A program made the position numbers and the translations under genes. Shown here piece after piece: positions 27,947 through 31,796 of a DNA stretch of 64,000 nucleotides; within the stretch, counting starts at the first letter, position 1, and the number at the start of each line of letters is the position of its first letter. Where the stretch lies: the NCBI GenBank assembly GCA_964578605.1, contig CAZODO010000017.1, forward strand, positions 3,994 to 67,993, given 5' to 3'. This stretch comes from an uncultured Verrucomicrobiota bacterium (GTDB lineage Bacteria; Verrucomicrobiota; Verrucomicrobiia; Limisphaerales; SIBE01). The notes beneath the pieces are model-generated. The model saw only the letters and a list, made by a program, of their open reading frames with translations. It was not told the DNA's origin and searched no databases.

Positions 27947-28780
27947 ATGACTATGAATCCGAAAGAAAACCAACTCACCAAACTCAGACTGGGCCAAGGC
28001 TTCACGCTGATCGAACTCCTCGTCGTGATTGCCATCATCGCCATCCTTGCCGGAATGCTCCTTCCCGCGCTGTCCAAAGCCAAATCCAAGACGAAGGGCA
28101 TCACGTGCATGAACAACACCCGCCAATTGATGCTGGGCTGGCGGCTTTATGCCGAAGATTACGACGACGTCCTCCTGGCCTCGCTAAGCATGAGCCCTAA
28201 TCCTTACAACCGAGTCATTTGGGTGACGGGCAGCCTGGATTACACCTCGGCCCGGAGCAATTGGGACATCAACCAGGACGTGGCCAAGAGCCCTCTCATG
28301 CCCTACATCGGCAACAACTTCTCCATTTGGAAATGCCCCTCTGACATGGGCTTGGTCAAAGACAACCAAGGCCGGAAGGTGCCCCGGGTCCGCAGCAATT
28401 CGATGAGCCAGGTCTTTGACAATGGCGGCTGGCTGCCGGCCTCCAGTTGGCGGATCTACGAGAAGATGAGCCATATCGTCATCCCGAGCAAGACCTGGGT
28501 CCTGATCGATGAGCATCCGGATAGCATTAACGACGCGGCTTGCGCCGTGCAAATGGTCAAACCCGACGCCAAAACAGCGCAAATCATCGACTTTCCTGCC
28601 AGCTACCATAACGGCGCGGCCGGGATGGCCTTCGCTGACGGACATTCGGAAATCCACAAGTGGCTGGGCACCAAGATTAAGGCGCCTGTGAAGTACACCC
28701 TGATGTCTCTGAACGTGCCTGCGGGCGATTCCCTGCGGGACATCATTTGGTGGTCAGAGAACACGACGGTCGCCAAATAG
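27947..28780 (+). CDS. Prepilin-type N-terminal methylation domain protein (PVC-type pseudopilin)
   Basis: [22 protein letters not shown]-terminal [13 protein letters not shown]. Confidence 0.92.
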
Positions 28781-28842: not shown

Positions 28843-29565
28843 ATGCCTTATCGTATTTTGGACCGCGAAGAAGCGGCCCGTTATCTGAACCTGGATCCTT
28901 GCGAGTTGGAGGACCTGATTGCCGGACGGGATATTCCCTTCGAGATCCGAGGGGACCGGACGGTTTTTCGGCGCCAGGACTTGGATGACTGGGCGTCGCA
29001 ACGCATTCTCAAGTTCAATGTCAAGCACCTCGCCGCCTATCATTCCCGGGGCGCGAACAGGGGCGAGGGTCATGCTCCCGACGAACCTTTGATGCCCGAA
29101 CTGGTGAGATTGCCCCAGGTCCACGCCGCGTTGAAATCGAAGACGAAAGCTTCGGTCATCCGGGACATGGTGCGGTTGGCGGCGCGCACGGACTGGATTT
29201 GCGATCCCGCGGATCTTATCGAAAGCCTCGAAGCCCGGGAGAGCCTGTGCCCGACGGCTCTTCCCGGAGGCGTGGCTTTTCTGCATCCGAGGACGCGCCA
29301 GCCTTATCAGTTCGAGGCTTCGTTTCTGGCTCTTGGCAGGACGATTCAACCCATTCACTTTTCCGCCCCGGACGGCCAGCCCACGGACCTGTTCTTCCTG
29401 CTTTGCGTGGAAAACGACCGCCTGCACCTGCGAACCTTGGCCCGCCTGTGTTACCTGGCGCAAAAAACGGATCTGCTCGTGGATCTGCGCGAGGCGCCGG
29501 ATGCCGCGGCAATGTTCGAGGCCCTTCTCGCTTCCGAGCGGCTGGTGATCGAGGCCAAGAGTTAG
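28843..29565 (+). CDS. HTH-fused PTS EIIA (PtsN-like) protein
   Basis: N-terminal EAARYLNL HTH; REsLCPTALPGGVAFLHPR EIIA motif; start at ATG 28843. Confidence 0.85.
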   Translation: MPYRILDREEAARYLNLDPCELEDLIAGRDIPFEIRGDRTVFRRQDLDDWASQRILKFNVKHLAAYHSRGANRGEGHAPDEPLMPELVRLPQVHAALKSKTKASVIRDMVRLAARTDWICDPADLIESLEARESLCPTALPGGVAFLHPRTRQPYQFEASFLALGRTIQPIHFSAPDGQPTDLFFLLCVENDRLHLRTLARLCYLAQKTDLLVDLREAPDAAAMFEALLASERLVIEAKS

Positions 29566-30386
29566 GCGAAGAAAGGATTGTTCGCCTTTTCCGTCTCGAC
29601 TGTGGTGAGCGGGCCGTGCCCCGGACAGATAAGCGTTGCCGGGGGCAGCGAGAAGATCTGATCGCGAATCTTCTGTTTTGCGAGATCGGCATGCTCTCGC
29701 GGCCCGCCAATGGAGCCTGCGAAGATGGCATCGCCAACCACCGCGACGTTCGGCGCGTCGTCGGGCCAGTTTCCAATCACGTAAGTGACGCCATCGTCAG
29801 CGTGGCCCGGGGTATCCCGGTGGGTGATCCGAAGGCTTCCCAGATGAATGAAGTCATTCGGGCGATTCCGTTGATCGGGGGGCGCGCCCTTGATGCTGGA
29901 GTGGAGTTTGGCTTTCGGGAACCGGTCACGGAACACCGCGAGGGCGGCCATGTGGTCGTGATGCGAGTGGGTGATGAAAAGGTGCTTAAGCTGCAGAGCT
30001 TCGCGGTCGATCCACTCGAGAACCGGTTCCGCGCTGAACCCGGTGTCAAACAGGGCCGCTTCCTTGGTCACCTCGTCCCAGCACAAGTAGCAATTGACGT
30101 CCATGCCTGAACCCCGGGTGGTCACGACCCTTAGTTCACGCCACGCACCAAGATCAATGGCCGGCGGCAACCAACCGCTCGCAACCCGCCTCAGCTTGGG
30201 TCCGTCCAAGCCGAGCAATTTGGCCAGCGCCTCGTAATCCGGGCTGCCTGCAGCTCGCCCTGAATCCTCCAGTTGCGCGAAATCCCGCATCTCAAGGCCC
30301 GCTGCGCGCGCGGCAACTTCCGGTGAGATGTTGGCTGACTGGCGCGCCTTTCGAATGATGTCGCCTACGGAATCTTCGAGCGTCAT
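29562..30386 (-). CDS. XRE-HTH-fused MBL-fold hydrolase (glyoxalase II-like)
   Basis: N-terminal HTH; THSHHDH, TPGH, GDAIF, PGHGP. Confidence 0.85.
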   Translation of the reverse strand: MTLEDSVGDIIRKARQSANISPEVAARAAGLEMRDFAQLEDSGRAAGSPDYEALAKLLGLDGPKLRRVASGWLPPAIDLGAWRELRVVTTRGSGMDVNCYLCWDEVTKEAALFDTGFSAEPVLEWIDREALQLKHLFITHSHHDHMAALAVFRDRFPKAKLHSSIKGAPPDQRNRPNDFIHLGSLRITHRDTPGHADDGVTYVIGNWPDDAPNVAVVGDAIFAGSIGGPREHADLAKQKIRDQIFSLPPATLICPGHGPLTTVETEKANNPFFA

Positions 30387-30577
30387 GGCTCAAGGCTAAA
30401 GGGCGGCCGCCGCTCACGCAACCCGGACTTGGGCGCGGAGCAGCCATTCTCGTTTCAGGCAGGGCGACTCGCTCCGTCGCGCGCCGTGGCTAACTTCCGC
30501 CTGACCGTGATTGTCTCCGCACAGAATTCTTTCCGCCCAGTCTGCAGAATGTTTGAGAGAAAGAGAAAGCAAGAGCA

Positions 30578-30605
30578 TTGACGAAGAAGTGAACTCTGCT
30601 AATCT
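30578..30605 (+). promoter_or_regulatory. Promoter of the aroF leader
   Basis: TTGACG-N16-TAATCT with extended -10 TG. Confidence 0.6.
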
Positions 30606-30613
30606 GAGCGGGC

Positions 30614-30700
30614 ATGACAAACCGCAGCCAGCGCTTTAGCAACTGGTTTGGCTGGGCGTTCTACTTTAGCCCGCTGAACCTGCGCGTCGGGCTGCATTAA
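30614..30700 (+). CDS. Attenuator leader peptide (28 aa, Phe/Trp/Tyr-rich)
   Basis: MTNRSQRFSNWFGWAFYFSPLNLRVGLH: 4 Phe, 2 Trp and 1 Tyr within 11 codons. Confidence 0.85.
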   Translation: MTNRSQRFSNWFGWAFYFSPLNLRVGLH

Positions 30701-30717
30701 GCGCAAACTTTAACCCG

Positions 30718-30751
30718 AGCCGCAGGTCGTCACCCCTGCGGCTTTTTATTT
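30718..30751 (+). terminator. Attenuator terminator hairpin
   Basis: AGCCGCAGG-loop-CCTGCGGCT followed by TTTTATTT. Confidence 0.88.
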
Positions 30752-30782
30752 GCCCAGCTGTGGCGCCCCGCCCAAAAAACCT

Positions 30783-31796
30783 ATGATAGTCGTCTTACGA
30801 CCCGAGATTACCAAGAAAGAAGAAAGCGCCGTCCTGAGCGAGATCCGCAAACTGGGATACAAACCCCACATCATCCGGGGCGTTGAGCGCACGGTGATCG
30901 GCGCCATCGGCGACGAGCGCACGCATCACACGCTCGAGACGCTTGCCGTATGGCCCCAGGTGGAAAAGGTCATGCCCGTGCAGAAGCGGTACAAGCTCGT
31001 CAGCCGCGAGGGCCAAAGAGAGAATTCGATTGTCGATGCCCGTGGCGTAGCGATCGGAGGCAAGAAATTCCAGGTCATGGCAGGCCCATGTTCCGTGGAA
31101 AACGAGCATCAACTCATGACGACCGCTGAGGCGGTCCGGAAAGCGGGGGCGACCGTTCTCCGCGGGGGCGCCTTCAAACCCCGCACGTCGCCTTACGAAT
31201 TCCAGGGGTTGGGCCCGCGCGGATTGAAATTGCTGGCCAAAGCGCGGCGCGCCACCGGTTTGGCCGTGATTACGGAGCTTCTCTCCGAAGATCACGCAGA
31301 GTTGGTGGCCGAATACGCGGACATCCTCCAAATTGGTGCGCGCAACGCCCAGAATTTCCAACTGCTCATCGCCGCCGCCAAGACGGGCAAGCCGGTTCTG
31401 CTCAAACGCGGCCTGTCGATGAAGATCGACGAATGGCTGCTGGCCGGTGAGTACGTCATGGCCAATGGCAATCCCAACTTGCTCTTCTGCGAACGGGGCA
31501 TCCGCACATTTGAAACCTACACCCGTAACACGCTGGATCTGAGCACGATCCCGATCATCAAGAACGAGTCCCACCTCCCAATCGTCATCGATCCAAGCCA
31601 GGGATGCGGCCGCGCGGATCTCGTGCTCGCGATGTGCAAAGGCGCCGTCGCGATAGGTGCGGACGCGCTGCTCATCGAGGTGCACCCGGATCCGTCGACG
31701 GCCATGAGCGACGGGGCCCAGCAGCTCAACCTCCAAGGCTTCGAACGGCTCATGGAAGAACTCAAGCCATTCATCGCCGCCGCCGGGCGGGAGTGA
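30783..31796 (+). CDS. aroF: DAHP synthase (type I-beta with N-terminal regulatory domain)
   Basis: AGPCSVE, GGAFKPRTSPY, GARN, ERGIRTFE, DPS, IEVHPDP. Confidence 0.95.
   Translation: MIVVLRPEITKKEESAVLSEIRKLGYKPHIIRGVERTVIGAIGDERTHHTLETLAVWPQVEKVMPVQKRYKLVSREGQRENSIVDARGVAIGGKKFQVMAGPCSVENEHQLMTTAEAVRKAGATVLRGGAFKPRTSPYEFQGLGPRGLKLLAKARRATGLAVITELLSEDHAELVAEYADILQIGARNAQNFQLLIAAAKTGKPVLLKRGLSMKIDEWLLAGEYVMANGNPNLLFCERGIRTFETYTRNTLDLSTIPIIKNESHLPIVIDPSQGCGRADLVLAMCKGAVAIGADALLIEVHPDPSTAMSDGAQQLNLQGFERLMEELKPFIAAAGRE

Follow-up and report, generated by a model that had tools for sequence, protein, structure and literature searches.

The trpL, pheL, and hisL leaders of Escherichia coli are classical four-segment attenuators. 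To our knowledge, almost no gene regulation has been characterized in the Verrucomicrobiota. In Corynebacterium glutamicum, the aroR leader precedes aroF, which encodes a DAHP synthase, and acts by ribosome-mediated attenuation; its peptide contains Phe-Tyr-Phe, and in experiments it responded to limitation of Phe, not of Tyr (PMC4046766; review PMC11802643). In Acholeplasma, the predicted upstream ORF uORFC-13-1, which contains one or more Phe codons, is located upstream of aroF and directly before an intrinsic terminator (PMC8632094). Regulatory short ORFs at the very 5′ end of the transcript, starting with AUG or GUG, are reported for the leaderless polycysteine ORFs of mycobacteria (bioRxiv 10.1101/834739).

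We analyzed the region upstream of a DAHP synthase gene in a 64,000-nucleotide stretch of DNA from an uncultured Verrucomicrobiota bacterium (the whole of this 64-kb stretch is referred to as the window). On the basis of sequence and structure comparisons, we consider it highly probable that a classical leader-peptide transcription attenuator controls this gene. As in aroR, a short mixed-aromatic leader ORF stands before the DAHP synthase gene, and the Phe-Tyr-Phe of aroR corresponds to F16-Y17-F18 here. Compared with the published description of the actinobacterial leader, for which no Trp codons are reported, the verrucomicrobial leader has seven aromatic codons representing all three amino acids, and the enzyme behind it is of type I-beta and includes a ferredoxin-like domain. 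As the two leaders come from different phyla, their likeness is likely functional and convergent; in that case, Corynebacterium and this lineage would have evolved the arrangement independently, each with Phe-Tyr-Phe in a leader of mixed aromatic codons before DAHP synthase. The features shared with trpL, pheL, and hisL are regulatory codons in segment 1, masking of segment 2 once the ribosome reaches the stop codon, 2:3 and 3:4 pairings that exclude each other, and a terminator with a U tract. In contrast to these leaders, the verrucomicrobial one is predicted to be leaderless and without a Shine-Dalgarno sequence, encodes three amino acids rather than a run of a single residue, carries key codons in the loop that caps the 1:2 hairpin, and gives no match to an Rfam Trp, Phe, or His leader (positions 30300-31000, E up to 10). 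The arrangement of a Phe-containing upstream ORF followed by a terminator and then DAHP synthase is common to uORFC-13-1, which according to its description differs by a ribosome-binding site and by a U-run that codes for at least one Phe. A regulatory ORF that starts at the 5′ end is likewise reported for the mycobacterial polycysteine system, which concerns another amino acid in another phylum and a mechanism described for operonic expression.

Leader-peptide attenuation of DAHP synthase is thus already known from aroR and, as a prediction, from Acholeplasma; a case from the PVC superphylum is apparently unreported. The initial annotation of this DNA, made from the sequence without database searches, knew of no such report in PVC bacteria, and our full-text literature search that combined Verrucomicrobia with leader peptide and attenuation gave no relevant report, the precedents lying outside this superphylum. 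What sets the element apart from the known systems is its predicted leaderless state, the joint presence of Phe, Tyr, and Trp codons in almost all members, and the predicted location of Tyr-Phe codons in the 1:2 loop.

Leader architecture at the DAHP synthase locus

The gene on the forward strand at 30783-31796 (ATG 30783) encodes a 3-deoxy-7-phosphoheptulonate synthase of type I-beta (DAHP synthase), the entry enzyme of aromatic amino-acid synthesis, that scored 467 bits against NF006421 and matched PF00793 and the ferredoxin-like PF18152, the latter domain being N-terminal. On the same strand, a promoter is situated at 30578-30605 and comprises a −35 element (TTGACG, 30578-83), a 16-nt spacer whose final TGC includes the extended −10 TG (30597-98), and the −10 hexamer TAATCT (30600-05). 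The leader ORF (30614-30700) begins with ATG 30614, 8 nt past the −10 hexamer, and ends with TAA 30698-700 after 28 codons, giving the product MTNRSQRFSNWFGWAFYFSPLNLRVGLH. Because there is no space for a Shine-Dalgarno sequence between the −10 hexamer and the ATG, we predict a leaderless or nearly leaderless mRNA. Seven of the 28 codons are aromatic and form a regulatory cluster at 30635-30667, with F8 at 30635, W11 at 30644, F12 at 30647, W14 at 30653, F16 at 30659, Y17 at 30662, and F18 at 30665.

The 3′ part of the ORF contains segment 2, the 5′ arm of the antiterminator (30678-30691, ACCTGCGcgTCGGG), which lies within codons 22-26 and includes the conserved core ACCTGCG (30678-84). It is complementary at 12 of 14 positions to segment 3 (30714-30727, CCCGAgcCGCAGGT), whose partner is either segment 2, in the antiterminator, or segment 4, in the terminator. 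The intrinsic terminator (30717-30751) consists of GAGCCGCAGG at 30717-26, an 8-nt loop, CCTGCGGCTT at 30735-44, and TTTATTT at 30745-51; its stem of 10 bp includes 7 G-C pairs, and the calculated energy is −18.4 kcal/mol. This is the sole strong forward-strand terminator between 29500 and 32500, and the hairpin occurs once in the 64-kb window. The terminator is not that of the upstream neighbor gene (29562-30386), since that gene is on the opposite strand. Predicted minimum-energy structures placed positions 30624-30695 in a long 1:2 hairpin, formed by arms 30624-57 and 30669-95 and closed by an apical loop (30658-68) that contains the F16-Y17-F18 codons. We assign this hairpin the role of anti-antiterminator on the basis of the predicted fold, and it is possibly also a pause hairpin. 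The entire 150-nt leader folds with z = −2.9 relative to shuffles. The initial annotation had described many of these elements, and each one it listed is present where it was placed; the promoter, the near-leaderless aromatic peptide of 28 residues, the 3:4 terminator with its U tract, and the DAHP synthase downstream all held up at this locus and, as reported below, in its relatives.

Several further observations were made in the window. A strict scan for a hairpin plus a T-run over the 64 kb gave three sites on the forward strand and nine on the reverse strand, mostly weak, and the attenuator terminator ranks among the strongest terminator-like sites. The heptamer CCGCAGG is not over-represented as a repeat within the window, and no second attenuator-like leader was found there. 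A forward-strand ORF at 27947-28780 has an N-terminus with a prepilin-type cleavage/methylation motif; by eye, we take it to be typical of large DUF1559-like families of Verrucomicrobia and Planctomycetes, which fits a PVC origin of the window.

Occurrence and coding character of the leader in relatives

An enzyme-based scan that took one genome per species yielded 80 related loci, all from Verrucomicrobiota-type MAGs (Limisphaerales, Pedosphaera), with protein identities of 75-89%. In 69 of these 80 species-level relatives the leader is kept upstream of DAHP synthase as a unit composed of promoter, start codon, a Phe/Tyr/Trp-rich ORF of 20-32 codons, terminator, and a type I-beta enzyme gene; 66 of the units are complete and 3 are clipped by contig ends. 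The small aromatic-rich ORF stops 60-108 nt upstream of the enzyme ATG in the 69 loci. Ten loci are without the attenuator, and one more (L047) has it in part.

The window and 62 orthologous loci were combined into an aligned set of 63 leader regions. The motifs TTGAC, TG, and TAnnnT were each at least 90% conserved in this set. A consensus promoter scan left the leader promoter below its threshold and unlisted because TAATCT fits the consensus at only 3 of 6 positions; we accept the promoter on account of its phylogenetic conservation despite this result. The start codon is ATG in 32 of the regions and GTG in 31, mostly 6-9 nt past the −10 element, and, as this spacing leaves no room for a Shine-Dalgarno sequence, leaderless mRNAs are predicted family-wide. 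The 31 GTG starts on predicted leaderless mRNA are counted against attenuation.

The ORF has the properties of a coding sequence. Over the 63 leaders, the leader frame averages 6.9 aromatic residues with no internal stops, whereas the other two frames average 1.6 and 2.3 aromatic residues and have more than one stop each. Despite many indels, the ORF length is held at 20-32 codons and the start keeps its position with respect to the promoter. Phe, Tyr, and Trp account for 13.9%, 7.0%, and 5.5% of the leader residues compared with 2.5%, 1.7%, and 0.7% of those in the DAHP synthases, for totals of 26% and 4.9%, an enrichment that is partly built in because the leaders were initially chosen by aromatic density. 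A structure-based covariance model independently retrieves the same loci as the choice by aromatic density. Phe and Tyr are present in all 63 leaders and Trp in 62; outside this set, leaders L001, L005, and L032 are without Trp. Codon usage is skewed as well, with TTT accounting for 80% of Phe codons in the leaders versus 21% in the DAHP synthase genes, and TAT for 56% versus 19% of Tyr codons. The preference for U-ending codons may be due to selection, either for regulatory codons that wobble decoding makes slower to read or for hairpin loops rich in A and U.

The covariance model, built on the predicted structure of the window, gave one match per locus, including one in the window. Every strong match (at least 30 bits) has a DAHP synthase gene downstream; the 64 full-length family matches (at least 28.8 bits) and two strong matches from metagenomes all directly precede the start of such a gene. 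This arrangement bears on the idea that the promoter, ORF, and terminator serve mainly to produce a short, stable transcript with a trans-acting role as an sRNA or small peptide, with control of DAHP synthase being secondary or constitutive. Attenuator-derived products of this kind, an sRNA and a peptide with trans functions, are described for Sinorhizobium rnTrpL/peTrpL, and L047 retains the promoter and terminator in the absence of the ORF hairpin. A trans function would nevertheless supplement a cis mechanism, not supplant it, and the invariable position before the DAHP synthase start argues for cis control; we judge a mainly trans-acting role to be very improbable.

Metagenomes were also scanned with the pattern CCTGCG-N(20-50)-CCGCAGG-N(3-12)-CCTGCGG. 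As a family detector the pattern was rejected as unspecific, since 3 of its 120 matches precede DAHP synthase. When the covariance model was applied to the pattern matches, it was strong only for the copies linked to DAHP synthase, and the metagenome scan gave no sign of the leader family controlling other genes.

The loci that deviate from the family take several forms, and the attenuator was apparently lost several times among the relatives, as judged from their upstream regions. L009, L017, L022, L028, and L052 have no attenuator and carry a TTGACG-type promoter immediately 5′ of the enzyme gene; in two of them, L009 and L017, the enzyme ATG is ∼8-10 nt past the apparent −10, such that the DAHP synthase mRNA itself may be leaderless. 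In L047, the interval from ∼116 to 40 nt before the DAHP synthase ATG retains the promoter and a terminator (CCGCCGG/CCGGCGG), the aromatic ORF and 1:2 hairpin are deleted, and a residual GTG-started frame runs through the terminator; the attenuator here may have decayed or may terminate constitutively. In L032, the interval from ∼180 to 40 nt before the ATG encodes the leader MTHFARFYFTSLSASRLTLL followed by a wholly different terminator (GCCCCGAC/GTCGGGGC), and a search of this locus for an antiterminator found no convincing candidate. Eleven loci (L001, L029, L047, L048, L056, L064, L079, L006, L017, L034, and L055) come from records with odd names, which include Akkermansia muciniphila, Bifidobacterium, Klebsiella, Methylomirabilota, Acidoferrum, and Haliangiales; on Limisphaerales-type contigs, such names are likely to be binning or labeling errors in public MAGs.

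Alternative pairings of the leader RNA

When each leader ORF was folded alone, it formed a long hairpin with Tyr-Phe codons in the apical loop and an outer helix that joins GCAGCC (near codons 4-6) to GGCTGC (near the stop codon). Over the 63 leaders, this 1:2 hairpin has a median z-score of −3.3 relative to dinucleotide shuffles and of −2.4 relative to random synonymous recoding. Aromatic codons occur in the apical loop of 62 of the 63 leaders, and 53 have two or more there. Pairing is possible for 76.4% of cells in the model-fitted alignment, which comprises 64 sequences, compared with 35-50% for slid partners, compensatory changes on both sides are seen in 29 of the 35 pairs, and none of 500 shuffles reached the observed value on any of five measures; these pairing figures are inflated because the alignment was fitted to that structure, whereas the z-scores are alignment-free. 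RNAalifold applied to plain MAFFT alignments (62 and 18 sequences) recovered the terminator alone, the ORF hairpin being missed because its register shifts between lineages. A gapless codon alignment of the 19 leaders with 28 codons supports the outer GCAGCC/GGCTGC helix only.

A different 1:2 pairing had been proposed in the initial annotation, namely a 6-bp helix between AGCCCG (30668-73) and CGGGCT (30688-93). Both strands exist, but in the family alignment 239 of 500 shuffles pair equally well, and on the strength of the z-scores and covariation we replace this helix as the anti-antiterminator with the long hairpin 30624-57/30669-95.

The terminator was found in 62 of the 63 leaders, with a nearly invariant core CCGCAGG/CCTGCGG, 93% of cells paired in the model alignment, and compensatory changes at the base and top of the stem. 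The antiterminator was examined by folding RNA that was masked to 13 nt past the stalled A-site codon and from which segment 4 was omitted. In this masked fold, a median of 80% of the bases in the terminator 5′ arm pair with the 3′ end of the ORF. The antiterminator energy was below that of shuffled segment 2 in 59 of 63 leaders with a modest median z of −1.8, the shuffled segment being a weak control because any G+C-rich segment partly pairs with the G+C-rich terminator arm. On a structure-blind MAFFT alignment, 70.6% of antiterminator cells pair compared with 31-46% for slid controls. On the alignment fitted to the competing structure, the proportion of paired cells is again 70%, with the 7-bp core 77-89% paired and the TCGGG/CCCGA extension 46-55%. 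The 12-of-14 complementarity that had been noted between segments 2 and 3 is therefore real at this locus and its core is conserved, but the extension is lineage-specific, and we no longer count it as a conserved part of the antiterminator.

Two relatives are informative about the core. L043 has the terminator core CCGCCGG/CCGGCGG and segment 2 GCCGGCTGGCG (in full, GCCGGCUGGCG), and L029 has CCGCGGG/CCCGCGG and segment 2 ACTCGCGG (in full, ACUCGCGG), with a Leu-to-Ser change in its peptide. In both, all three strands are altered together and pairing is preserved. True covariation of the antiterminator amounts to these two lineages plus G-U changes because the core is nearly invariant. The preservation of pairing in L029 while Leu becomes Ser indicates that the constraint is on the RNA, not on the peptide, and this result is also pertinent to the possibility of a functional or nascent-chain arrest peptide, with which regulation would depend on the peptide sequence and not on tRNA charging. 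The motifs RFS, YFS(P), and LR.GL/LRLR do recur in many leaders, and Arg-Leu-Arg is known from drug-dependent arrest leaders (PMC8632094). The L-R codons, however, fall exactly on the antiterminator core C-YUG-CGS, the peptides diverge freely in sequence and length beyond the aromatic cluster, and codon choice favors RNA structure in comparison with random synonymous recoding. A functional or arrest peptide is accordingly assigned a very low probability.

The near invariance of CCGCAGG/CCTGCGG over 63 species could also be read as a sequence-specific binding site, and the well-supported hairpins would suit a switch controlled by a ligand or protein (a riboswitch, T-box, or TRAP- or PyrR-like target) for which the ORF is incidental and untranslated. 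The invariance is explained, however, by the two pairings that the core has to make, one of them with a stretch that codes for peptide as well. An Rfam cmscan of 30300-31000 with E up to 10 revealed no leader family, T-box, or riboswitch, and returned just two chance-level matches (SraC_RyeA and GHRLOS). An incidental ORF is also difficult to reconcile with a frame that stays open, keeps its start fixed to the promoter and its 20-32 codons despite indels, and is alone in its aromatic enrichment. The most variable nucleotides are in covarying stems, and a conserved unpaired pocket was not seen. We consider such a switch improbable.

Ribosome position and proposed mechanism

The ribosome footprint extends ∼12-14 nt 3′ of the A-site codon. 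In the leaders, the median distances are 14 nt between the first base of the final aromatic codon and the segment 2 core, 12 nt from the end of that core to the stop codon, and 21 nt from the stop codon to the segment 3 core. These spacings combined with the known footprint mean that a ribosome starved at the last aromatic codon would leave segment 2 just free, and one at the stop codon would cover it. In the window, the 1:2 hairpin holds all seven aromatic codons in its 5′ arm or its loop, so a stall at any of them should free segment 2. The reading of the locus as a ribosome-mediated attenuator, with which the initial annotation began, is thereby supported by conservation, structure statistics, compensatory changes, and footprint geometry over ∼70 species.

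In the mechanism that we propose, transcription would start at the leader ATG or within ∼3 nt of it, and a ribosome would translate the 28-codon ORF right behind RNA polymerase. With ample charged tRNA-Phe, tRNA-Tyr, and tRNA-Trp, the ribosome would reach the stop codon at 30698 and cover segment 2 (30678-91), which upon release of the ribosome would rejoin the long 1:2 hairpin (30624-95). Segment 3 would then pair with segment 4, the terminator (30717-44) with its U tract would form, and most transcripts would end early. If an aromatic aminoacyl-tRNA were scarce, the ribosome would stall at the codons of 30635-67 and melt the 1:2 hairpin, its footprint ending ∼13 nt downstream, right before segment 2. 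Segment 2 would capture segment 3 as the latter is transcribed, no terminator would form, and RNA polymerase would read through into the DAHP synthase gene. With both folds allowed, the terminator is the minimum-energy fold in ∼50 of the 63 leaders; as it is favored thermodynamically, read-through must rest on kinetics, as in trp. This scheme implies that leaderless translation in this group is quick enough for coupling to transcription.

The most likely effect of the leader, given its sequence features, is to raise DAHP synthase when Phe, Tyr, or Trp is scarce. From the codon content we infer that all three amino acids are sensed; codon presence is nevertheless no proof of sensing, because the Phe-Tyr-Phe leader of C. 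glutamicum answers to Phe and not to Tyr. A broader version of attenuation, to which we give some credence while leaning against it, is that a single leaderless attenuator integrates the three aromatic aminoacyl-tRNA pools at the shikimate entry in graded fashion and is the main control throughout the clade. Under this broader version, the gradation would stem from the placement of Trp and Phe codons in the 5′ arm and of Tyr-Phe codons in the loop at the apex, and the choice of TTT and TAT, which are decoded by wobble, would sharpen the sensitivity. If true, the integrating attenuator would govern most of the transcriptional control of aromatic biosynthesis in an entire verrucomicrobial order, and the PVC superphylum would have its first demonstrated case of classical attenuation.

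Attenuation of DAHP synthase by the leader, in its plainer form, would extend the classical leader-peptide mechanism to the Verrucomicrobiota, with ∼70 natural sequence variants as a ready family for testing the attenuation model. The element can serve as an annotation marker for a small ORF and regulatory 5′ region that gene callers overlook, and it is a candidate aromatic-amino-acid sensor for engineering.

A separate attenuator was noticed on the reverse strand of L157, a metagenome contig with a weak covariance-model match. Its leader (∼2649-2767) has a Shine-Dalgarno sequence, encodes the peptide MSNMSRYYYYASSLCFTCGLKVG with four consecutive Tyr codons, and has a CCGCAGG/CCTGCGG terminator with a 9-U tract. 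Downstream of the leader are a tRNA-Tyr(GUA) at 2561-2646 and then an ORF of >400 aa, which by eye we take to be tyrosyl-tRNA synthetase-like (HLGH in the HIGH position, and KMSKS). Judged by these features, the L157 leader would be a Tyr-sensing counterpart of the pheST leader.
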